12,541 nucleotides of DNA from the UHGV virus genome UHGV-0189011, one strand, 5' to 3'. Position 1 is the first letter of the stretch. Each line of letters begins with the position of its first letter. Both the position numbers and the translations under genes were made by a program. The notes under the pieces were generated by a model, which saw nothing but the letters and a program-made list of their open reading frames with translations, had not been told where the DNA came from and searched no databases. This document shows positions 1 through 12,541 of the stretch, one piece after another. The DNA comes from a virus.

Positions 1-40
1 CGCAGGCATTGTTATCAACCCGGCAACAGGGAGGAGCCCT

Positions 41-277
41 ATGCCCGTTATTGCCATTATCGCCATTGTTGCCATCGTCATCATTCTGAACAAAACCGGG
101 GTGTCCGACAGTCTCGCGGCCCTGACCCTTGCCACTGTTGCCGCACTGCTGACGGGAGGTGGCGCAGCCGGTGCTGCCAGTGTCGCGCTGACACCGTTCG
201 TCGGCGTGCCGGTGGGTATTTTCGTCGGCATTTATGTCTTTGCCAAAGTGGTACGTCTGATTTCAGGGAAAAAATAA
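41..277 (+). CDS. small inner-membrane protein (78 aa, two predicted TM helices)
   Basis: ATG at 41 preceded by GGGAGGAG (28-35); hydrophobic segments IAIIAIVAIVIIL and VGVPVGIFVGIYVFA separated by a Gly/Ala-rich linker; stop TAA 275-277 overlaps the next ATG (TAATG). Resembles YkfL/YpjK-type small membrane proteins (recalled). Confidence 0.6.
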   Translation: MPVIAIIAIVAIVIILNKTGVSDSLAALTLATVAALLTGGGAAGAASVALTPFVGVPVGIFVGIYVFAKVVRLISGKK

Positions 278-720
278 TGAAATGTAAAACACTACCTCTG
301 CTGGCGATGGTTGCCACCACTCTGTTTCTGAGCGCCTGCGATGACAGGAGTGATGACCTGAAAGCTATCAGTAAATTTAAGGACCTCACGCCTCCGCGCT
401 TCAGCGATGTGGTCAGTCGGCAGGATGATGTCAGCGAAGAATGGTCACAGGTTGGCTTTTCATCAGGTCTCACCCTGCAGGTCTTACGTACCCGTGAGTC
501 GCCCGATGGCTGCGAGGGCGGTAGTTACTACTACCTCGTGGATATGCAGGAAAAAACCATCCAGCCGCTGATGAATGCGCTGTGTATTGCCGATAACATC
601 AAACTGGAATACCAGGAGGTGACGGACCCGTATACCAAAGAAAAATACTTTGAGTACGCCCATGACGGCAAACTGATGGGGCAGCTACTGATACCCTCGA
701 ACCCTGACAATCAGGAATAA
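277..720 (+). CDS. yafY: lipoprotein (YafY/YfjS-like), 147 aa
   Basis: N-terminal signal peptide with lipobox LSAC followed by DD; ATG at 277 coupled to the upstream stop; stop TAA 718-720. Symbol is by recalled synteny with E. coli CP4-6 and is tentative. Confidence 0.6.
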   Translation: MKCKTLPLLAMVATTLFLSACDDRSDDLKAISKFKDLTPPRFSDVVSRQDDVSEEWSQVGFSSGLTLQVLRTRESPDGCEGGSYYYLVDMQEKTIQPLMNALCIADNIKLEYQEVTDPYTKEKYFEYAHDGKLMGQLLIPSNPDNQE

Positions 721-742
721 AACAACGACAAAGGAGACAAGA

Positions 743-1210
743 ATGACAATACTTTCACTAAGTCGGTTTATGCTGGCGGGTGTACTGCTCGCGAGCTTTA
801 ATGCCTCTGCTATCCCGGGGTTCTGGCAGCAGGGTTACGGTCAGGGCAATACGGAATACAGCGTGACCGAAGCCAGCGGAAAGACGTTTACCATCAACTG
901 CACAGGGAACCCGGACCAGAATGGTTTCTATCAGCATTCAGTCTTTCTTACCCTTGCCGATGACAAGATGGTCAGTTCGCACGATGACGACACTACTATC
1001 ACCGTAGTGATGGATCACCAGCAGTACATTATTCCGTCCAGCCTGGGCTGGCGTAACGGCGATAACGCCTGGTTTGACTTCATCAGCAATATCTCTGAGG
1101 CCGGGCAGTTCGACGTCTACGTCAATGACCACAAAGCAGGGACCTTCACTGCGGACCGGAAGAACACTGAGAAAGTTCTGTCCACTCTCGGAGACTGCAG
1201 CAACGACTGA
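743..1210 (+). CDS. secreted/periplasmic protein with cleavable signal peptide (YkfB/YfjT-like), 155 aa
   Basis: ATG at 743 with AAGGAG SD (731-736); N-terminal hydrophobic signal [23 protein letters not shown]; stop TGA 1208-1210. Confidence 0.6.
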
Positions 1211-1236
1211 TAGTAGTATCTTCCCCAGCAAATCCA

Positions 1237-1271
1237 CCCCGACAGCTAGCAGGCTGCCGGGGTTTTCTTTT
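1237..1271 (+). terminator. putative rho-independent terminator between the secreted-protein gene and the DUF905 gene
   Basis: GC-rich hairpin ccccgacag/ctgccgggg (8 of 9 bp paired, 8-nt loop) at 1237-1262, immediately followed by the T-tract ttttctttt (1263-1271). Confidence 0.45.
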
Positions 1272-1286
1272 ATCAGGAGCCCGAAA

Positions 1287-1526
1287 ATGACCCAATCCGT
1301 GTTGCTGCCACCGGGGCCTTTCACCCGGAGACAAGCGCAAGCGGTCACTACCACGTACAGCAATATCACACTCGAAGACGACCAGGGCAGTCACTTCCGT
1401 CTGGTGGTTCGTGATACTGAAGGCCGGATGGTCTGGCGGGCATGGAACTTTGAGCCGGATGCCGGTGAAGGTCTTAACCGCTATATCCGCACCTCAGGCA
1501 TCCGTACAGACACGGCCACCCGCTGA
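1287..1526 (+). CDS. ykfF: DUF905 family protein (YkfF-like), 79 aa
   Basis: ATG at 1287 with AGGAG SD (1275-1279); product [20 protein letters not shown]... matches the recalled YkfF/DUF905 family. The longer ORF from 1074 is rejected because it overlaps the upstream gene and terminator. Confidence 0.7.
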
Positions 1527-1623
1527 TCGCGAAGCATTTACCCGCATTCACCTCCCCGAACACACTTTATATCCCCATACGCCAGCCATCGCCGCTGGCG
1601 TTTTTATTGACGGAGACATACCC

Positions 1624-2082
1624 ATGACAACACAGACGCAGCACGACCTCGCACCCGCTAACCAACCCGAATTTGAACTGACCGTCACGCCGGTCCCCGA
1701 TGAACAGCGTATCGATTTCTGGCCACAGTACTTTGGCGCTATCCCGCAGTGGCTACTCCTGGAGCCGCATATCTTCGCCTGGATGGATCGCTTCTGTGAG
1801 GGCTACAGCGGTGGTATCTGGTCGTTCTACACCCTCAGCAATGGCGGCGCATTTATGTCCCCCGAGCCTGACAACGATGAGACATGGCGTCTGTTTAACT
1901 GCCTGAACGGTAACGATGCCCAAATGAGTGCAGAAGCAGCAGGTATTGCTGTCTGCCTGATTGCGTATAGCCACCATGCCTGCCGTACAGAATGTGACGC
2001 GATGACCGCACACTATTACCGCCTGCGGGAGTATGCCATGCAACATCCAGAGGCTCACGCCATTCTGCGTATTATCGACTGA
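1624..2082 (+). CDS. yafX: antirestriction protein, KlcA/ArdB family (YafX/YfjX-like), 152 aa
   Basis: ATG at 1624 with GGAGA SD; product MTTQTQHDLAPANQPEFELTVTPVPDEQRIDFWPQYFG... is typical of the enterobacterial island antirestriction family; stop TGA 2080-2082. Confidence 0.75.
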   Translation: MTTQTQHDLAPANQPEFELTVTPVPDEQRIDFWPQYFGAIPQWLLLEPHIFAWMDRFCEGYSGGIWSFYTLSNGGAFMSPEPDNDETWRLFNCLNGNDAQMSAEAAGIAVCLIAYSHHACRTECDAMTAHYYRLREYAMQHPEAHAILRIID

Positions 2083-2097
2083 CCGAAGGAGCAACAG

Positions 2098-2574
2098 ATG
2101 AAACAGCTTTCCTTTTTACCCGGCGAGATGACGCCACAGGACCGGCGTCTCATTCAGCGGGCGCTCAGGGCTCTGGACCGCCACCTGCATGAGCCCGGCG
2201 TAGCCTTCACCTCTACCCACGCCGTACGTGAATGGCTGCGACTGCATATGGCCGCGCTTGAACGGGAAGAGTTCCGGGTGTTGTATCTGGACAACCAGAA
2301 TCAGTTGATTGCCCATGAAACGCTCTTCACCGGCACGATTAACCGCACCGAGGTGCATCCCCGGGAGGTGGTCAAACGTGCTCTGCACTTCAACGCGGCG
2401 GCGGTGATACTCGCGCATAACCATCCTTCCGGCGAGACGACACCTAGCCAGGCCGACAAAACCCTCACGCAGCGACTGGTTCAGGTGCTTCAGCTGGTGG
2501 ATATCCGTGTCCCTGACCATCTGATTGTCGGTGGCAGGCAAATCTATTCGTTCGCAGAACACGGTCTGCTTTGA
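2098..2574 (+). CDS. ykfG: RadC-like JAB/MPN domain protein (UPF0758; YkfG/YfjY/YeeS-like), 158 aa
   Basis: ATG at 2098 with GAAGGAG SD; JAMM-like motif HNHPSGETTPSQAD in the product; stop TGA 2572-2574. Confidence 0.8.
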   Translation: MKQLSFLPGEMTPQDRRLIQRALRALDRHLHEPGVAFTSTHAVREWLRLHMAALEREEFRVLYLDNQNQLIAHETLFTGTINRTEVHPREVVKRALHFNAAAVILAHNHPSGETTPSQADKTLTQRLVQVLQLVDIRVPDHLIVGGRQIYSFAEHGLL

Positions 2575-2582
2575 GGTATTAC

Positions 2583-2804
2583 ATGAAAATTATCAGTAAA
2601 CGCAGGGCAATGACGATATACCGCCAGCATCCTGAGTCCCGAATCTTTCGCTACTGCACCGGCAAATACCAGTGGCACGGTAGCGTCTGTCATTACACCG
2701 GCAGGGACGTTCCGGATATCGCCGGAGTCCTCGCGGTATACGCCGAACGCCGCCAGGACCGCAATGGGCCCTATACCTGCCTGATGAGCATCACCCTGAA
2801 CTGA
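2583..2804 (+). CDS. ykfH: DUF987 family protein (YkfH-like), 73 aa
   Basis: ATG at 2583 (the track ORF from 2571 begins with TTG); product MKIISKRRAMTIYRQHPESRIFRYCTGKYQWHG...; conserved position between the RadC-like gene and the antitoxin in CP4-type modules. Confidence 0.65.
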   Translation: MKIISKRRAMTIYRQHPESRIFRYCTGKYQWHGSVCHYTGRDVPDIAGVLAVYAERRQDRNGPYTCLMSITLN

Positions 2805-2822
2805 CAATAGTGGAGAACTGTA

Positions 2823-3502
<680 letters not shown>

Positions 3503-3567
3503 ACATTGCGTACAACCTTCCCGATTTACATTTCTGAACTTCCTCCCTTGTTTACCTATTGCGTAAT

Positions 3568-3604
3568 GCGCCTGCTACTACCCGGCAGGCGCGTTATCTT
3601 TTTA
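3568..3604 (+). terminator. putative rho-independent terminator downstream of the toxin gene
   Basis: Perfect 8-bp GC-rich inverted repeat gcgcctgc / gcaggcgc (3568-3575 and 3585-3592, 9-nt loop) followed by gttatcttttta. Confidence 0.5.
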
Positions 3605-3873
3605 CGGACAAACAATCATGCAACCAGAAGTTGAAGTATTAACCGATCATAATGAGCTAATTTGTTCGAGCTTTATTGAACACATTGCCAACACATTAAA
3701 TTTAGGAGTGGTGTACAACTAAACCTGCAGCCAAGGATGTATAGTGAGCGAAGCCCTATCAGGCCTTTTTGGTCAGTAGATAAGATTGATCTTCGTTGAT
3801 AGAATTTACTTACACCAGCTGTTACATTAAGATAATTTTTTGGTGGGAGAATGATAAGATCTTACGTAACAAT

Positions 3874-3929
3874 TTGATTTTAATGGTGCCGATAATAGGA
3901 GTCGAACCTACGACCTTCGCATTACGAAT
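3874..3929. repeat. attR-type direct repeat: copy of the 3' 46 nt of thrW (3884-3929) plus 10 bp of flank
   Basis: 3882-3929 is identical over 48 bp to 12453-12500; 3874-3929 matches 12445-12500 with one mismatch (offset 8571 bp). Identity stops exactly where the tRNA anticodon region begins (3930 c versus 12501 g). Confidence 0.9.
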
Positions 3930-4163
3930 CTGTAGCACCAATCATAACTATCTGTTTTAGCAAGCATTAACCGCATTCACTAAGCTATAGTTGATGGCAC
4001 AAACAGAAAGTTGATGCATGATGTTGTCATGCGTATGTCACAAATACGGCACAACAATCTTCAAATATGTAGACACACATCTACAGGAGAGCACAAAGCC
4101 TTGCAATACAGTGCAAAGCCTTGTGTGTCTCAGTTTTGTCCTGTGTGCCAGATATTGAATGGC

Positions 4164-4766
4164 CTACGCCTCCGGCAGTTCAGGCCAGATGACATCCGGC
4201 GCGGTGCTGGTATCTGTTACCGTCACCGCGTCAATGTAATCCAGCACGGCGTTAAGTCGGGTTGTTTCTGCCTGCGTCAGCTTCCGCCCGGCCTGTAATT
4301 TCAGTTGAATCAGACTAATGGAAGCCATTGCAGCATCAATCAGTGACTGGCGCTGTGCTTCTGCCGCGTCTACTGCGGCGCTATGCTGTGCCTCAGTATC
4401 GGTCACCCATTTCTCACCATCCCATTTATCGTATGGCGTTAATGGGGCGATAGTGGTTGTATTTTCAGGGTAATCACCCGGAGCGGTGATTTCTTTTGAT
4501 TCTCCTGTTTTGGTGCTATAGACCGTTTCACCGCGATGGTCTGGCACATATTCCCATGAGTTAAAATCTGCAGAACGGCAGATTGCATAACCAGCCTTAT
4601 GTGTGCCAGGGGCATCTAAACAGGAACATGCCGGAATGCCGATACCAACGGCAAGATATTCATTTGAAGTGGAAATATATTCCCGAGTTTCACCATCATA
4701 GCTATAGACGGTAATATTCCCCGCCTTCGTGGCAATAAGCTCGCTATTTAATACAGCGTTATCCAT
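4164..4766 (-). CDS. tail fiber assembly protein (Tfa; Caudovirales tail-assembly chaperone family), 200 aa
   Basis: Product has the Tfa family hallmarks (WEYVPDHRGETVYSTKTGE, EKWVTDTEAQ, VTDTSTAPDVIWPELPEA C-terminus), as in TfaE/TfaQ-type proteins; ATG at 4766 overlaps the fiber stop (TAATG); stop TAG 4164-4166. Confidence 0.8.
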   Translation of the reverse strand: MDNAVLNSELIATKAGNITVYSYDGETREYISTSNEYLAVGIGIPACSCLDAPGTHKAGYAICRSADFNSWEYVPDHRGETVYSTKTGESKEITAPGDYPENTTTIAPLTPYDKWDGEKWVTDTEAQHSAAVDAAEAQRQSLIDAAMASISLIQLKLQAGRKLTQAETTRLNAVLDYIDAVTVTDTSTAPDVIWPELPEA

Positions 4767-5500
4767 TATACAGCCCTCACGATAAAGTTAAATGCAATAT
4801 TTCGCGCACGTGTTTCCGTTGATGTTCTGGCAACACGTGATGCATCAAAATAATAATTCGCCTGTTTATATGTACCACCTGTCGCAATTGATGCGAGATT
4901 TGGTGTCAATGTTGAAGAGGTAAATGCGCCGACAGTATTATTATTTGGCCCCGTGGTCATATCCAAAAAGCTACCTGTAATATTTTGCAGCGTATCGCTC
5001 TGAGCACTCAATAACGCTCGCCCACTGTCCACTCCACGCCCATCATCCCAGCCACGAATAAACTCACCACGTAAATCAGGCAATTTATTTGTCGGGTAAG
5101 CCTTTGCCAGCTCCGGGTATTCTTCAGCAGAAAAAGCTGCACCATTGCATTTCAACCAGCCTGTCGGTGGTGTAGCTGAAGGCCACGGAACAGGCACACC
5201 AACAGGTAATGCAGAGCCTTCTCCCAAACCAAGGTTTGTGGTAATCGCTGTCGCCAGCTTTGCCACCAGTCCATCAACGTCACCATCATCGAGCGCGTCC
5301 AGTTCGGCGTTCGCGATAAACTGCCCCAGTACAGCCGCCATCGTCGACGGTTGGCGCAGCGCTTTACTGACCTGTGCGCTGGATGCTTTACCCGAGGAGA
5401 ATCCTTTCTTCAGTGCGGTTAGCGTCTCCCATTCCTCCTGCGAGGTAACATTTGCATTAGCATCTGTCGCAAACGCTTTAAAATCATTAGTTCCAGCCAT
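4766..5500 (-). CDS. short tail fiber protein with C-terminal phage tail-collar domain, 244 aa
   Basis: C-terminal motif WLKCNGAAFSAEEYPELAKAYP...LPDLRGEFIRGW is typical of the tail-collar domain; start chosen at ATG 5500 (GGGGGAG SD, TAATG overlap with the upstream stop) rather than the track start at 5518; immediately followed by the Tfa gene. Confidence 0.7.
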   Translation of the reverse strand: MAGTNDFKAFATDANANVTSQEEWETLTALKKGFSSGKASSAQVSKALRQPSTMAAVLGQFIANAELDALDDGDVDGLVAKLATAITTNLGLGEGSALPVGVPVPWPSATPPTGWLKCNGAAFSAEEYPELAKAYPTNKLPDLRGEFIRGWDDGRGVDSGRALLSAQSDTLQNITGSFLDMTTGPNNNTVGAFTSSTLTPNLASIATGGTYKQANYYFDASRVARTSTETRARNIAFNFIVRAV

Positions 5501-6180
5501 TAAAGTAATCTCCCCCATGCGCCGTCATCAAAACCGGCGATGTATTCGTTATCCATGTCAAATCCAAAGAATTTTGTTCCTTCGGACGGTGTTTCGACCG
5601 AGGGTGTTTCAACGCCGCCAGCCCATACACCAGCAGCTTTAACGGTGAGATAACCCTGTTTGATAGCGGCTATCAGTTCGAGTGACACATCAGAAATATC
5701 AGTCTCGGGAAAAACCCAGACCGATATCGTCATGTCCTGGTTATCGACGATCTGCATCTTCAGTCCAGAGCCTGCGGTAGCAGCGTCAAGGATGGGAGGC
5801 AGAGAGTCGTTCCGACCATCCCAGTTGTTGATAGCGATTTTCGCTTTCAGAATGATGCGGTACGTCTCATCACTCAGCGTCGTATAGCCAGAATCAGGAT
5901 CATATGGCCCTTGCCAGATGCCCTGGTCATATCCGAGCCCGTCAGTGTCCCAGCTGAAATAAACGCCGCTAATTGGCTGGCTGACTATACGACTACGCCC
6001 AATCCACAGGCCGAGGATATCGAGTTGCACGCCAACCGCCGTATCGATATCGAAGGCTGTTACAAGCCCTGACATAGTGCTGGACACATCAATCAGCGGG
6101 CGGGTGCTCAGATCTATATGGTCAAAAAAGAGTGGCTTGGTAGCGTGGTAGTTAGTGATCAGTTCGGTGTATTTGCTCAT
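5500..6180 (-). CDS. putative tail/baseplate structural protein, 226 aa
   Basis: Intact ORF coupled by ATGA overlap to the upstream gene; lies between a putative baseplate-like protein and the tail fiber; contains a [13 protein letters not shown] motif. Family not confidently recognised. Confidence 0.45.
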
Positions 6181-7277
6181 GAGGTCACCGTGATAGTGAT
6201 ATTCGCGGTGCTACAGGACGCCGAAGCATCATAGGCAATATCAATGTTTGATGCCGATACGCTGCCAGACGACTTACCGATCAGCAGGTCGGTAATATCG
6301 TAATAGCGGGCATTCCCGCCGCTCACAACGCCGAGGTTTGCCGGGGAATAAATACGGCTCAGCAGAACGTCGTCGCCAATTGTTAGGCCATTTATATAAT
6401 CGGCAACAGCCTGTTTAATCTGCTCGCCGATTTGAGAGGTATAGCCGGTAAAAACTTTCAGGGTAATGGCTACGAAAATTGGCACATCGGTAGAGCGCGA
6501 AAAACTGATGACGTGAGGATTACCATAAGTATCCGGCACTGTGACAGAAGTTGTCCCGTAGGTTGCCGTTCCCTGTCCTTTATTCCCCCTGATGGCCTGG
6601 GCAATTTCGGTAACATCCCCACCATCGACGATGGCGGAAATCGAGTGTGGCGGCAGCCCATTGCTGTCGGTTGCCCCCGTGTCGTTCTCATACAGTTTGT
6701 GACGTGTCACGCCAGCAATGTTAGCGATTGCACCGTCGACGCCTTCAAACGGTGTGACCGATGGTAGCGCGACGCTTTGCCCCTGCCGAATGCGCAGCTC
6801 TGCGTCGGTTTCAGCTGGTGAACCGACAGTAGCCGCAGCCGGGTTGGTTACCGACACCCAGCCGCGAGTCGGTGTGTTAATGGTGGTAATAGTCCCGGCC
6901 ATCGCCGCAACCGAACCGCTATTCGCACATGTGGCCGTAACCAGTACAGTACCGTCAACGCCGATCGCTACACTTGCGGGAAAATTCCAGATAATGCCGT
7001 TTTTATCCCGTGCGGAGCCATTCGTGATAGTTGTTCCCGCCGTACCGGTTAACAGAAGGTCAGCAGTAGAGTTTGTCGCTACTTTTCGCGTGATCCCGTT
7101 AATTTTCACATTGCTGCTATCTTCAACGCCAGAATACAGGCGAACACGCTCGCTTGTCGGGATCACGTTAGATGAGCCCAGAATCAGCAGCGCACCGAAG
7201 TTACGCCCGGTTGCCGCCGTCGCCGCCATAATCACATCAACGTTAACAACGTTGGAAACAGGTAAGCCCTGTGCCAT
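6177..7277 (-). CDS. putative tail/baseplate structural protein (possibly baseplate J-like), 366 aa
   Basis: ATG at 7277 with GGAGA SD; Thr/Gly/Ala/Val-rich beta-type composition; the [11 protein letters not shown] motif is reminiscent of baseplate J / gp6-like proteins (recalled, uncertain); positioned two genes upstream of the fiber. Confidence 0.45.
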
Positions 7278-7280
7278 AGA

Positions 7281-7844
7281 TTAATCTCCAAAAAATGATA
7301 CTGGTACATCCACCAGCAATTTGATGCCGTATTCGCGCACAACCTTACGGCGCAGTCGCACCGTCATGTCGTAACGGCGAACCCATTGCTGGTTGATAAG
7401 TTCGGGGAAAGGAGTCAGACCGGTATAGTCGCCAAGGGACAAACCAAGAGCGTTAAGCTCAGCATTATTTTGCGGGACAGATATGCCATCACGAAAACGG
7501 GACGCATAAGACATACCAGCCGGGCCATAGAACGACGCCATGCACTCGAACGTTTCATGCCTCCAGAGCTGAGCGCCCTCTTCAGTCTGCCAGGTGAATG
7601 CAGGGTTGTTATCAATGAGCAACCCGGTAACGCCAAACGCGCACCAGTTCGTTTCAACGGGTGGCAGTGGCGGCTGGTCTTTCTGCCAGCGCGGGCGAAC
7701 CATCCCAGCAGGCAAGCCGGAAACGTTGCGCATCCACTGACTTAACAGCCTGTCTAGCGCTTCGTCATAATCCGGATCGCCGCTGGTGGGTGTCAGCCAG
7801 CCGCGCTCTGTGCTGGTGTTATTGCTCAACGGGAGTTCCCCCAT
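7281..7844 (-). CDS. phage structural protein of unknown function (start uncertain)
   Basis: ORF is open from a TTG at 7907; the first ATG is at 7844, with no convincing SD; stop TAA 7281-7283 lies 4 nt upstream of the next start. Confidence 0.4.
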   Translation of the reverse strand: MGELPLSNNTSTERGWLTPTSGDPDYDEALDRLLSQWMRNVSGLPAGMVRPRWQKDQPPLPPVETNWCAFGVTGLLIDNNPAFTWQTEEGAQLWRHETFECMASFYGPAGMSYASRFRDGISVPQNNAELNALGLSLGDYTGLTPFPELINQQWVRRYDMTVRLRRKVVREYGIKLLVDVPVSFFGD

Positions 7845-8208
7845 CAAACGGCAGTAATTCACAATGCGCCTGGACAAAGCCAGCACCGTAAGCCGTGTAC
7901 GGGTCAACGAATGTCACACGATAATCACGGTTCTGGTACGTCACGATATCGGCGTCACGGCCAGTCTGCCCCTGCGTCAGCCGCTCAGTTGTCACGATGA
8001 GAATCGCGCCACTGATAACTTGCCCGGACTGCATACGGCGGTTCTCCAGGGAGCGGTCAACGGTAACAACTCCGGCAAACTGCGTTTTTACTTCGCTGTC
8101 ACTGCCGATCCCGTCATCGTCCACCGTTTGCACGCGACGCGTTACCCACAGGTTGAAGTCGCAAAAATCGGGGTCAAAAAGTACGTCCGTCACATCAAGA
8201 TTCGGCAT
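7819..8208 (-). CDS. putative head-tail joining / head-closure type protein, 129 aa
   Basis: ATG at 8208 with GAGGG SD; 14-nt overlap with the upstream gene; size and position after the connector genes. Family not confidently recognised. Confidence 0.4.
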   Translation of the reverse strand: MPNLDVTDVLFDPDFCDFNLWVTRRVQTVDDDGIGSDSEVKTQFAGVVTVDRSLENRRMQSGQVISGAILIVTTERLTQGQTGRDADIVTYQNRDYRVTFVDPYTAYGAGFVQAHCELLPFDGGTPVEQ

Positions 8209-8782
8209 CTTTATCCCTCACAACGTGGGTAATGGCTCTGCGGTACTGTCCGGTATCAATCAACGGCCTTACATTCTCATTGCTTATCAATTGACCAGAA
8301 TCTGGGTTGATAGCATTAAGCTTTCCATCTGCTGATCTGCGTGCTAACTCAGCTTTAGCCCCTTTGCGCCCTCGACGTGCTCGGGCCTCTACGGTGCTAT
8401 CAGCAAGCGGTGTAAAGCCGGTAATGGTCATGTAACGCCTGACGCCATTCGCGGCCAGCGTTCCGGCGCGGTTAAGCGCTCTTTCCGCACCCGCCGCATT
8501 TCCATCAAGCGCAGCCTGCGCCGCTGCTTTGAGCTGCGGCACCGTCTGTTCCTCTACGGATTTAACGCCGGGGATCAGGTGCGGGCGTGGGGGTATGTTT
8601 TGCGCTGGTGAGCCGTATTCGTTGACGTAACCGATCCCGGCATTACCAAACGGAACATCCTCACGCTCGCTGTCTTCTTCCGGGATGCCCACCAGCACAT
8701 CCTTTTTGGTTAGCGACCGGAGCGCATCCAGAATGGCCTGAGCGTTATCAACCCTCGTTGTTACACCACTTTTGAAACTCAT
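8195..8782 (-). CDS. putative head-tail connector component (HK97 gp10-like?), 195 aa
   Basis: ATG at 8782 overlaps the upstream stop (ATGA); [16 protein letters not shown] resembles the E-F/Y-G ... RPF signature recalled for the HK97 gp10 family (tentative). Confidence 0.45.
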
Positions 8783-9198
8783 AGCTGGCGACCGCCCGCA
8801 CCGAACATCGTGATCAGCTGATAAAATTCAGCGCCATATCGGGTGTTATTCCAGAAGCCTGCGTCAGGGTTTAGCGTCGCGCTGGTGTCATAGCTGACGC
8901 TTACCTTGTCAACGGACTTGGAGGACTGAACACCATTGGTTGAGCCACCCGGGCCGCCGACGAGCATTGCCCGGCTATCTGCCGCCCAGAGCGTCATGTA
9001 GTGAGCCACGAACAACTCGACAAAGTACGGAAACAACTCTTTGCCGGTGACGTTTTCGCTCAGCAGCACATCAGCCAGATTCAGACGAAACTGGATTTGT
9101 GCTTCGGGATATTTGGCAGGGTCAGCAAACTGTGGAAAGTCGCGCCGAAAATCACTTACTGTTGGCAGGCTTTGATTCTTTGGCATCTTTTGCCCCAT
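8779..9198 (-). CDS. putative head-tail adaptor protein, 139 aa
   Basis: Intact ORF overlapping both neighbours; position immediately after the capsid genes; alternative ATG start at 9186. Confidence 0.4.
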
Positions 9199-9520
9199 TA
9201 CCGCCAGTCTGGGCGGCAGAAATCTGCGCTTGCAGGCTGTCGTTCTGCTCTTGCATCTTGAGCAGCGCTTCTTTCAGATCGGCAATCAGCTGATCTTTAT
9301 CGACAATCTGCGCTTGCAGGCTGTCGATAATGGGTTGCAGATCATCGGTGTCGCTAATCACGCTTTCGGAAAGCTCAGAGTGCGCCTGGGTGAACCAGTG
9401 CGACGCGACCTCTTCCGGTACGTTATGCCGTCCCCGGCCAAACTCCTGTTTTGACTGATCGCCCAGCGTCAGCGTAAACGGGGTGTGAACATGGATGGTA
9501 ACCAGCTTTTCTTTCGCCAT
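9152..9520 (-). CDS. small phage structural protein with coiled-coil C-terminal half, 122 aa
   Basis: ATG at 9520 with AAGGA SD; heptad-like region [35 protein letters not shown]; first gene after the capsid-gene hairpin. Confidence 0.45.
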
Positions 9521-9535
9521 TTTCAGTTTCCTTCT

Positions 9536-9551
9536 GGCCCCTTTCGGGGCC
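9536..9551 (-). promoter_or_regulatory. stable GC stem-loop with GNRA (GAAA) tetraloop immediately downstream of the putative major capsid gene
   Basis: Minus-strand RNA reads GGCCCC-GAAA-GGGGCC, 11 nt after the capsid stop (9562-9564); no U-tract follows, so more likely an mRNA-stabilising or attenuating hairpin than a full terminator. Confidence 0.4.
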
Positions 9552-9561
9552 GTTCTGGTTA

Positions 9562-10503
9562 TCAGATACCGTCCACGTAGGACAGGGTTTCTTTGTACAC
9601 TGGCTCAACCGCACCGAGCTTGCCGTAGTAGGTCGCAATCTGGTACAGACCGCGATACTGGATAGGAACGCTCTGCAACGGCACCAGCGGATAGCGCACG
9701 TATTTCTTGTCGTTGGTGTAGGCGACCATACGGTCTTTACCGCCAACGCCGCGCCCTTTCAGCCATTTGACCGCTTTGATTTCCAGCGGAACGCCGTTCT
9801 GGTGGAAAGCGATAGTGTTCACGGCCAGATAGGTCAGTAGTGACTGGTTACCCGCTTCGGAAACCTTACGGCTCGCCAGCAGTGAATACTGCTCTGGCGG
9901 AATGCGCAGATCAGAAGGCACAACGGAATAACCGGATGCTGCCCAGGCATTCGACAGAATACTGTTCACGCTATCGAGGATTTCGTCGTTGGTGGAGTTC
10001 GCCCAGGTCTTCGGCGCATTGTTCAGCGTCACACCCACAAGGTTTGCCAGACCTTTCAGGCCGAGCGCATCATCGCCGATGTAAACCTGCTCGTCGTTGT
10101 CCATCTGCCATTTGAGCTGCATCCCGTCGTACTTCTGGGTATCAATCGGGCGGCCTACCTGCTGAGCTGCTGCCAGCTCTACAACGGTCCAGCCCAGTTC
10201 CATGCCCCAGAGGTTCAACGGATTGCCGTCTTTGCCGATATCAACGTTCACGCCAGCAATAGCGGTGGAGTCTTTACCTACCCAGTTTTTACCATTCGGA
10301 TTTGCACCAGTACCCGCAGCGGCGAAGCTGGTATTCGTCCAGCTGGAAATGTCATCTGCGATAGACACGTCTTCACGCAGTTGAATATCTCGGGTCCAGG
10401 TGTACCCCACCAGAGGCAGGTTCAGCGTCTGGTCGAGTCGCTCCAGCTCCCCGATGAGAAAGGCACCGGAGCTATCTACGGTTGCCTGATCAAAAGTAAT
10501 CAT
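9562..10503 (-). CDS. putative major capsid protein, 313 aa
   Basis: ATG at 10503 with AAGGA SD; third gene of the structural operon after the acidic scaffold-like and small capsid-associated genes; followed by a strong stem-loop; size and composition fit a small major capsid protein. Fold not verified. Confidence 0.5.
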   Translation of the reverse strand: MITFDQATVDSSGAFLIGELERLDQTLNLPLVGYTWTRDIQLREDVSIADDISSWTNTSFAAAGTGANPNGKNWVGKDSTAIAGVNVDIGKDGNPLNLWGMELGWTVVELAAAQQVGRPIDTQKYDGMQLKWQMDNDEQVYIGDDALGLKGLANLVGVTLNNAPKTWANSTNDEILDSVNSILSNAWAASGYSVVPSDLRIPPEQYSLLASRKVSEAGNQSLLTYLAVNTIAFHQNGVPLEIKAVKWLKGRGVGGKDRMVAYTNDKKYVRYPLVPLQSVPIQYRGLYQIATYYGKLGAVEPVYKETLSYVDGI

Positions 10504-10514
10504 TTGTCTGTTCC

Positions 10515-11018
10515 TTAAATCTTCCAGGAGATTTCTGCATTACCGTTAGCGTCACCGGCACCTGTGAATTCGGCGTTGGTCAGCGCCACGTTTTTGCCAC
10601 TGACGGACGTGGACATGAAGCCGCCCAGCGGCACTTTGATGGATTCATCAGTGGAGACGACAACGTATACCGGGTCGCCTTTTTTGATGGTGCTGGCATC
10701 AAAATCAGAACCGAGATTAACGGTCATGTAGCCACGCTTCATGGCGTCACCCGGGAAGTTCTTATCCGTCCCCACCTGGCGAACCATGTCTGGCTGCGAT
10801 GTGGTCGGATACGGACGAACGTAGATCCCCTTCACCTTGTCGGCGGTGTCACCGTCCGCCAGCGGCACGAAAAAGCCGTCAGCGTCATATTTGCCAGCCA
10901 GACCATAGGCAGCGAAGGCGTTAGCGGATTTAAGGATCACCGTCTCGACGGTTAAATCCTGCGGGCGAGAGATAGCCCCGGCAATGCCAACAGGCATCCG
11001 GTTCAAATATGCAGTCAT
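10515..11018 (-). CDS. putative capsid-associated (decoration/cement-type) structural protein, 167 aa
   Basis: ATG at 11018 with AAGGA SD; located between the scaffold-like and capsid genes; beta-rich, Gly/Asp-rich sequence. Confidence 0.45.
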   Translation of the reverse strand: MTAYLNRMPVGIAGAISRPQDLTVETVILKSANAFAAYGLAGKYDADGFFVPLADGDTADKVKGIYVRPYPTTSQPDMVRQVGTDKNFPGDAMKRGYMTVNLGSDFDASTIKKGDPVYVVVSTDESIKVPLGGFMSTSVSGKNVALTNAEFTGAGDANGNAEISWKI

Positions 11019-11022
11019 TGGA

Positions 11023-11511
11023 TTATCCTTTGCGGTTAGACCAGAAGTCGGCGTTTTGTTTGTTCAGGGAAGCGATGCTGGTCATGCCCATATTTGGACG
11101 TTGTGCATCGCCCGTGGTGCTGCGGGTGTTTCGCCCTTTGGCAATCTCAGACACGGCGTTAAACGCCATATCGACCGATTGCTTGGGCAATTTGCGGATA
11201 TCTGCATCACCGACAACCTGGCGAACCAGTGTTTTGTCAGCGGCGGACAGCACATCACGTTTGAACGCGGTCGGTTTCACCTTACGGCTCAGATCGATAC
11301 CCGGAACGATAACTTCGGCACGATAAGCAGCGTCACCGGTAATCGTGGTTTCCTCTTCGTCGTCCTCACCGTCGCCGGTAGGGTCTTTGTTATCTTTGCC
11401 GTCAGGCTTATCGTCGTTATCGCCCGTTGCAGTACCTTCCAGCTTAGCCAGCAGGGCTTTGAGCAAGGTTTTGATATCGTCCTCGCCGTCGCCGGTTGGC
11501 TCTCCGCCCAT
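11023..11511 (-). CDS. acidic scaffolding-like protein with duplicated PTGDGEDD motif (possibly 5'-truncated at the deletion junction)
   Basis: The ORF is open up to 11733, but the part above about 11607 is antisense to the integrase remnant, so the first plausible ATG is 11511 (weak SD); very acidic, low-complexity N-terminal half and alpha-helical C-terminal half; stop TAA 11023-11025. Confidence 0.4.
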   Translation of the reverse strand: MGGEPTGDGEDDIKTLLKALLAKLEGTATGDNDDKPDGKDNKDPTGDGEDDEEETTITGDAAYRAEVIVPGIDLSRKVKPTAFKRDVLSAADKTLVRQVVGDADIRKLPKQSVDMAFNAVSEIAKGRNTRSTTGDAQRPNMGMTSIASLNKQNADFWSNRKG

Positions 11512-11606
11512 TTCCGGCTTTTTGTCCGGCAATGGTTGTTGCGGTGAAAGATTAATGTTGAGGTTAACGCCGCTCGGCAGATCCCCTTCATCGCCCGTTA
11601 GACGGG

Positions 11607-12440
11607 ATGGAAAACCGCCGCCATCGCCTGAACTGGGAGATGAGCCGGGACAGGTGTTTGCGGCTTGGCAAGCCAGTGCCGGAGTATAAACCAAAGCTGG
11701 CAAGCAAAGGAACGAAGACGCGGCATCTGGCAATACTTCGCGCTATTCTCAATATGGCTGTTGAATGGGGATGGCTTGACAGGACGCCCAAAATATCAAC
11801 ACCACGCGTTAAGAATGGACGAATCAGATGGCTTACAGAGGAGGAATCGAAGCGCCTGTTTGCAGAAATTGCTCCTCATTTCTTCCCTGTGGTCATGTTT
11901 GCAATCACGACAGGCCTTCGCCGCTCCAACGTTACAGACCTTGAGTGGTCACAGGTCGATCTGGATAAGAAAATGGCATGGATGCACCCTGATGAAACAA
12001 AAGCTGGCAATGCGATCGGAGTTCCTCTTAACGAAACCGCATGCCAGATATTAAGAAAACAGCAGGGGCTCCATAAGAGATGGGTATTTGTCCACACCAA
12101 ACCTGCCTACCGAAGCGACGGAACAAAAACAGCTGCGGTAAGGAAGATGAGAACCGATAGCAACAAGGCATGGAAGGGAGCGTTAAAGCGGGCAGGCATT
12201 AGCAACTTCCGCTTCCATGACCTGAGGCATACCTGGGCAAGTTGGCTGGTTCAGTCCGGAGTCTCTCTTCTTGCACTTAAAGAGATGGGAGGATGGGAAA
12301 CTCTCGAAATGGTTCAAAGATACGCTCACCTTTCAGCCGGGCATCTCACCGAGCACGCGAGCAAAATCGATGCGATTATAAGTCGCAATGGCACAAATAC
12401 GGCACAAGAGGAGAACGTAGTTTACTTAAATGCGAGGTAA
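11607..12440 (+). CDS. int: tyrosine integrase, P22 Int-like, C-terminal catalytic part only (N-terminal arm-binding region absent; probable pseudogene remnant)
   Basis: Product has the tyrosine-recombinase catalytic signature (TGLRRSN ... HDLRHTWASWLVQSG ... YAHL); in-frame stop TAA at 11565-11567 leaves only 13 codons upstream of the first ATG; phage integrases of this type are about 390 aa, versus 277 aa here; ends 14 nt from the thrW 3' end. Confidence 0.8.
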   Translation: MENRRHRLNWEMSRDRCLRLGKPVPEYKPKLASKGTKTRHLAILRAILNMAVEWGWLDRTPKISTPRVKNGRIRWLTEEESKRLFAEIAPHFFPVVMFAITTGLRRSNVTDLEWSQVDLDKKMAWMHPDETKAGNAIGVPLNETACQILRKQQGLHKRWVFVHTKPAYRSDGTKTAAVRKMRTDSNKAWKGALKRAGISNFRFHDLRHTWASWLVQSGVSLLALKEMGGWETLEMVQRYAHLSAGHLTEHASKIDAIISRNGTNTAQEENVVYLNAR

Positions 12441-12444
12441 CTTA

Positions 12445-12500
12445 TTGATTTAAATGGTGCCGATAATAGGAGTCGAACCTACGACCTTCGCATTACGAAT
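12445..12500. repeat. attL-type direct repeat (3' part of intact thrW plus 10-bp flank), partner of 3874-3929
   Basis: Exact 48-bp identity between 12453-12500 and 3882-3929. Confidence 0.9.
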
Positions 12501-12530
12501 GCGCTGCTCTACCAACTGAGCTATATCGGC
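12455..12530 (-). tRNA. thrW: tRNA-Thr (anticodon CGU)
   Basis: The reverse complement reads GCCGATATAGCTCAGTTGGTAGAGCAGCGCATTCGTAATGCGAAGGTCGTAGGTTCGACTCCTATTATCGGCACCA: 7-bp acceptor stem GCCGATA/TATCGGC, anticodon loop with CGT, T-loop GGTTCGACTCC, encoded CCA. Confidence 0.95.
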
Positions 12531-12541
12531 CCTGAAAGGAC

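Follow-up and report, generated by a model that had tools for sequence, protein, structure and literature searches.

Recombination between attL and attR by lambda integrase (Int) requires arm binding, and the C65 fragment of this protein still binds core sites. The integrases of SfX, HK446, HK542, mEpX2, HK75, mEp043, and mEp213 form the SfX/HK446 group; they have 386 aa, their genes overlap xis, and their target is the tRNA gene thrW. P22 Int, from a Salmonella phage that also uses thrW, is a collinear homologue of 387 aa. Degraded elements are known as well: the cryptic Escherichia coli prophages CP4-6 (at thrW), e14, and Rac are att-flanked tRNA-gene remnants without induction modules, and cryptic and defective prophages of E. 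coli are a subject of PMC3105296.

We analyzed a stretch of 12,541 nucleotides from the virus genome UHGV-0189011 (the window). It has the same thrW target, att core, and arm DNA as the SfX/HK446 group, but its int copy lacks codons 1-109 and no xis accompanies it. It differs from P22 in the int allele and in not encoding a full-length protein. Compared with CP4-6, e14, and Rac, the remnant in the window keeps mainly head and tail-tip genes, its open reading frames (ORFs) are open, and its int product is 99.6% identical to active phage integrases. Very probably, the int fragment and the adjoining head-gene remnant belong to a decayed thrW prophage whose integrase gene of 386 codons was truncated by a deletion.

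The integration target, an intact thrW (tRNA-Thr, CGT), was located with ARAGORN on the minus strand (12455-12530). Contigs with 100% identity to window positions 1607-12541 extend into proA, proB, phoE, crl, frsA, and gpt; one of them, L004, has the E. coli context thrW-proA-proB-phoE. On the thrW side, the flank matches E. coli chromosomes at 97-98% identity. The stretch 3874-3929 recurs, as a direct repeat of 56 bp with one mismatch, at 12445-12500; these two copies are the att cores at the ends of an insertion of about 8.6 kb. The attL core (12445-12500) overlaps the 3′ 46 nt of thrW, and the attR core (3874-3929), a displaced partial copy of the thrW 3′ end, is the distal boundary of the remnant. 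The int gene adjoins its own att site: its stop codon ends at 12440, and the att core starts at 12445.

Nucleotide matches identified positions 3930-4140, adjoining attR, as phage-side arm DNA of the SfX/HK446 type (the P-arm equivalent). The segment 3863-4140 has 93.9% identity to the attP flank of HK446 and 97.9% to a prophage (L016) that carries the same int allele. Prophage 730V1 matches the attR-side arm over 3866-3980 only, at 83%. Since the arm DNA at the distal att site is of the SfX/HK446 type, the remnant has one and the same int/att system at its two ends.

Directly beyond attR, window positions 1-3502 contain a CP4-6-like island with genes for antirestriction, RadC/JAB, DUF987, and a YafW/YkfI type IV toxin-antitoxin pair. 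With this island to the left of 3874 and the remnant to the right, two degraded elements stand in tandem at thrW.

The truncated integrase gene is at 11607-12440 (plus strand) and corresponds, by Pfam and alignments, to codons 110-386 of a P22-family tyrosine integrase of the SfX/HK446 type. Its product has 277 aa. The original prediction held that the frame is closed upstream by a TAA at 11565-11567 and that the product keeps all catalytic motifs without an N-terminal domain; both statements agree with our results. There is no alternative start codon among the 13 codons between this TAA and the ATG. Pfam Phage_integrase (PF00589) matched residues 75-244 (E = 5e-35), and the motifs GLRRSN (Arg), ETKAGN (Lys), HDLRH (His-x-x-Arg), GGW, in which Trp replaces His II, and RYAH (Tyr) were found, with positions 103-108, 130-135, 203-208, 228-232, and 237-241. 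Alignments with HP1 Int and XerA support the motif assignment. On these motifs and alignments, the product is classified as a tyrosine recombinase of the lambda/P22 type (SfX/HK446 subfamily).

The truncation point, predicted to be near residue 110 of a P22-type Int of about 390 aa, was exact. Met1 of the product equals residue 110 of the 386-aa HK446 Int, from which the product differs in one residue (99.6% identity), and identity to the integrases of HK446, HK542, mEpX2, ECP1, HK75, mEp043, mEp213, and SfX was 99.3-99.6% over the full length. Residues 1-271 align collinearly with residues 110-380 of the 387-aa P22 Int (53% identity), and full-length HK446 Int and P22 Int are collinear from residue 1 onwards (54% over 380 aa). 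The missing part was searched for with tblastn, using residues 1-109 of HK446 Int and P22 Int against six frames of the whole window; no match above 25 bits, and thus no frameshifted remnant, was recovered. The same kind of search with HK446 Xis (six frames) gave nothing above 25 bits in the window. The cognate xis overlaps the int 5′ end in HK446, 536, and other intact relatives. A crude consensus scan revealed no promoter-like site in 11000-12541 or within 600 bp upstream of the int fragment.

To see what the cut removes, we modeled a full-length relative (P0002, 386 aa) with AlphaFold2 from an alignment of 30 sequences. The mean pLDDT was 75.6, with values of 85-94 across residues 1-170; the C-terminal 50 residues had low confidence and were left out of the interpretation. 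The model has an arm-binding fold in which a three-stranded sheet (residues 3-25) packs on a helix (31-51), five core-binding helices (59-69, 76-90, 100-108, 113-129, and 143-162), and, after a linker, a catalytic domain from about residue 187. Its best PDB match by Foldseek was full-length lambda Int (1Z1B; E = 1e-9, 387 aligned columns). The order of arm-binding, core-binding, and catalytic domains is the same as in the heterobivalent lambda Int (PDB 1Z1B/1Z1G), but sequence identity is only about 15%, and a profile–profile alignment to lambda Int aligned only the start of the catalytic domain, at 1.6% probability. The domain boundaries were therefore taken from AlphaFold2 and Foldseek.

Judged by this model, the 277-aa product lacks the arm-binding domain (residues 3-51 in the relatives) and, as it starts at residue 110, three of the five core-binding helices; it is a fragment that starts inside the core-binding domain. 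The loss had been predicted to comprise the N-terminal arm-binding region; that region is gone, and the deletion reaches further, into the core-binding domain. C65 of lambda Int is longer than the equivalent of the window product, and by this analogy a protein without most of its core-binding domain is unlikely to clamp core sites.

Immediately upstream of the int fragment, the original prediction placed a late structural gene on the opposite strand and called it scaffold-like. We identified it as the 3′ remnant of a gene for a DUF2213 head-maturation protease/scaffold protein, at 11023-11600 (minus strand). It comprises the C-terminal 192 codons (residues ~219-410 of 410), and in tblastn the segment was 98% identical to residues 216-410 of the 410-aa protein of M172-1. 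Pfam assigns residues 16-181 to the DUF2213 domain in the intact protein, so that this domain is lost from the remnant. The intact protein matches PHROG head-maturation-protease families; the remnant matches only phrog_1961, at positions 213-416.

Deletion junction 1 is at 11599/11600, with a 2-bp (TA) overlap of the DUF2213-gene and int sequences. In a three-way comparison of the window, L003/L014, and HK446, the DUF2213-gene sequence runs through ...CCCGTTA, and int starts with TAGACGGG. BLAST gave the same picture: the int match in E. coli genomes and phages starts at 11596-11599, and the match to structural prophage sequence ends at 11600. Both flanking genes are truncated, and the junction has no inserted bases, no insertion sequence (IS), and no filler DNA.

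A minus-strand ORF of 236 aa (11023-11733) spans junction 1 and shares 127 nt with the start of int. It opens with 44 codons that are antisense to int and have no homologue, and it is thus a by-product of the fusion.

The remaining genes are all on the minus strand. From attR towards int, they are a tail fibre assembly gene (4164-4766; Pfam Caudo_TAP on the identical contig L004, in agreement with the RefSeq annotation), a tail fibre gene (4766-5518; Pfam Collar on L004, homologous to "phage tail protein" genes of the relatives), a baseplate wedge gene (5500-6180; DUF2612/Phage_Wedge1, from domain matches and relatives), a fusion ORF (6177-7277), a neck/tail terminator gene (7281-7907; PF23961, E = 2e-34), four head-completion/connector genes (7819-9520; 129 aa, 195 aa, DUF4054 with 139 aa, and STY1053-like with 122 aa), a major capsid gene (9562-10503; DUF2184/PF09950, E = 1e-81), and a capsid cement/minor capsid gene (10515-11018; PF23982, PF22758). 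No xis, repressor, replication, lysis, terminase, portal, sheath, tube, or tape-measure genes were found in the window; the intact relatives have them.

The fusion ORF revealed a second junction. By its homology end points, it joins residues 1-52 of the sheath protein (DUF3383) in frame to residues ~87-399 of the baseplate J protein; PHROG assigned its residues 1-53 to tail sheath and 57-365 to baseplate wedge. In every relative examined, 7119 is the last position homologous to baseplate J and 7120 the first homologous to the sheath. Relative to the intact prophages, 8.3-8.6 kb are gone from junction 2, namely the rest of the sheath gene and the tube, chaperone, tape measure, and baseplate hub genes. 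Like junction 1, this junction has no IS sequence. One internal deletion had been proposed for the whole element: the span from int to the head gene fits the gene order of the relatives, but at least two deletions are needed, the second being independent of the first.

The head/neck module (7120-11600) has 93-97% DNA identity to prophages in many E. coli genomes; for intact prophages the figure is 94-96%. Among the relatives are the prophages of 730V1 (95.6% over this segment), 2021CK-01361, and EC2001 (both about 95%), which are complete, about 42 kb long, and located at thrW with the same module in the orientation of the window. Their order is tail fibre, baseplate, tape measure, tube, sheath, neck, capsid, and DUF2213, followed by minor head, portal, TerL, TerS, lysis, Q/nin, replication, immunity, recombination, xis, int, and thrW. 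This is the order required by the deletion, and in 730V1 the breakpoints of junction 1 are about 25 kb apart.

These three prophages have an int only 64% identical to that of the window. The window allele occurs at 99% in phages of other kinds, lambda-like (AMSCJX03), SfV-like (2017.10.01CC), and HK97-like (HK446), and none of the six thrW prophages inspected combined it with the DUF2213/DUF2184 module. The integration cassette is thus exchanged modularly among thrW phages, with one 99% allele across three backbones and the myovirus module beside a 64% int. The mosaicism and the matching att arm point to a single phage as ancestor of the remnant.

We propose the following history. A lambdoid temperate phage with an SfX/HK446-type integrase and att arms, and a myovirus-type head/tail module (DUF2213/DUF2184/DUF3383), would have integrated into the 3′ end of thrW in E. 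coli. An illegitimate-recombination deletion of about 25 kb, with a 2-bp overlap and no IS, would then have joined int codon 110 to codon ~219 of the oppositely oriented protease/scaffold gene, taking with it the xis, recombination, immunity, replication, late-control, lysis, terminase, portal, and minor-head genes. Another deletion, of about 8.5 kb, would have joined the sheath gene to the baseplate J gene, each junction presumably arising in a single event. The outcome would be an inert remnant of 8.6 kb between intact att repeats, in which the 277-aa ORF is an accidental product with an internal Met start, no recognizable promoter, and no partner Xis. All retained ORFs, including the int fragment, are still open, and this, with an int one residue from HK446 Int, suggests that the deletions are recent.

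The open ORFs fit a recent deletion; taken alone, they are also compatible with selection for some retained function.

The element has att repeats at a known integration site and has lost its induction and virion modules, as a defective prophage does. As predicted, it should be non-inducible as a phage, judging from the essential modules missing from its gene content. It had also been described as locked in place. For self-excision this should hold: without the arm-binding domain, three of the five core-binding helices, and Xis, the 277-aa product would be unable to carry out excision, and the truncated protein is presumably both inactive and unexpressed. The description goes too far in another respect. 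Because the att cores and the adjacent arm DNA are intact, Int and Xis of a superinfecting phage of the SfX/HK446 type could in principle excise the remnant in trans.

A phage satellite (PICI, P4-like, or cf-PICI) was also considered for the element and rejected: its integrase is truncated, replication and regulatory genes are absent, and the content consists of collinear fragments of a 42-kb prophage.

The 277-aa protein might be taken for a naturally short integrase or a genuine isoform with an internal start, as identical 277-aa products are called in the intact prophages L005 and L011 and Met110 is near-invariant (≥90%) in an alignment of 30 full-length family members. In L005 and L011 (9671-10834), however, all 386 codons form an open frame, and the short call arises because the gene caller avoids the 124-nt overlap of int and xis. 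P22 Int has Ile at the position of Met110, which is probably a buried residue. RefSeq/GenBank and curated phage annotations of related integrases give 384-387 aa, and in a collection of 5.8 billion proteins, 105 of the 120 best clusters have 381-388 aa, several of the shorter ones being labeled partial; the possibility that the subfamily is naturally about 280 aa long is answered by these lengths. Moreover, on the upstream side of 11599 the window sequence is that of another gene, encoded on the opposite strand. A natural short form is thus extremely improbable. Hardly any probability attaches, either, to the junction being an assembly chimera or the work of an IS. The junction is rare: it was absent from 5,426 complete E. 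coli genomes, GTDB species representatives, and JGI metagenome contigs, and an exact-protein look-up found it in ENA metagenome assemblies only (ERZ19663293, ERZ28662196, and further samples listed). Yet the contigs of these samples match the window at 100% identity over 10,935 bases, both junctions included, and such identity in at least two independent assemblies rules out a chimera. An IS2 lies 6 bp from the site in other lineages (L007-L010), but neither junction of the window has an IS, and its int sequence runs 6-8 nt upstream of the IS2 insertion point; an IS2-mediated origin of junction 1 was rejected for these reasons.

A deletion that spanned two tandem thrW prophages, an SfX-type phage beside thrW and a distal one with the myovirus module and its own int, is an alternative, although we consider it unlikely. 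In that case, no single phage would ever have carried both the int fragment and the structural genes. SfI and SfX are documented to integrate in tandem at thrW (PMC3306764), the window is itself a tandem array with the remnant beside the CP4-6-like island, and the intact thrW prophages of complete genomes that have the module carry the 64% int. Against this, the distal arm (3863-4140) is of the SfX/HK446 type, at 94-98% compared with a core-only match of 83% for 730V1, as would be expected of a tail-gene phage with the SfX-type int/att system, and the deletion would have to cover at least 60 kb. The int allele has been shuffled among at least three other structural modules, so that a fourth combination is unsurprising. 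Decay of a single SfX/HK446-type prophage by deletion is the reading we retain.

We also considered whether the truncated integrase is expressed and has been kept because it serves a function, which seems very improbable. It could then hinder incoming SfX/HK446-type phages from integrating or excising, either by blocking core sites or by poisoning Int tetramers, or it could act as a DNA-binding regulator akin to the recombinase-fold repressors MrpR, YopR, and SroF, which were among the weaker Foldseek matches of the P0002 model.

The case is one of ordinary prophage decay with a well-known integrase family, and the value of the locus is mainly for annotation, as a cleanly mapped two-step decay by illegitimate recombination at the busy thrW site. 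The same 277-aa "integrase" call arises in three ways: from this deletion, from IS2 insertion, and in intact phages with the int/xis overlap. A protein-level look-up therefore cannot separate a dead integrase from a live one.

The IS2 case was seen by comparing the first 57-79 bases of contigs L007-L010 with window positions 11599-11607: in these contigs, the left end of IS2 borders int, 2 nt before the Met110 codon. Two independent disruptions within a few bases, with the same 277-aa call, may be a coincidence or may mark a fragile spot.

A sister prophage with the same module is present at thrW in YZ22PE67 (L013, 29900-35100). It has lost its early region and int in a different way and has an IS1 and a partial gene beside thrW. 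Its decay via IS1 indicates that this phage type has decayed repeatedly and independently at thrW.
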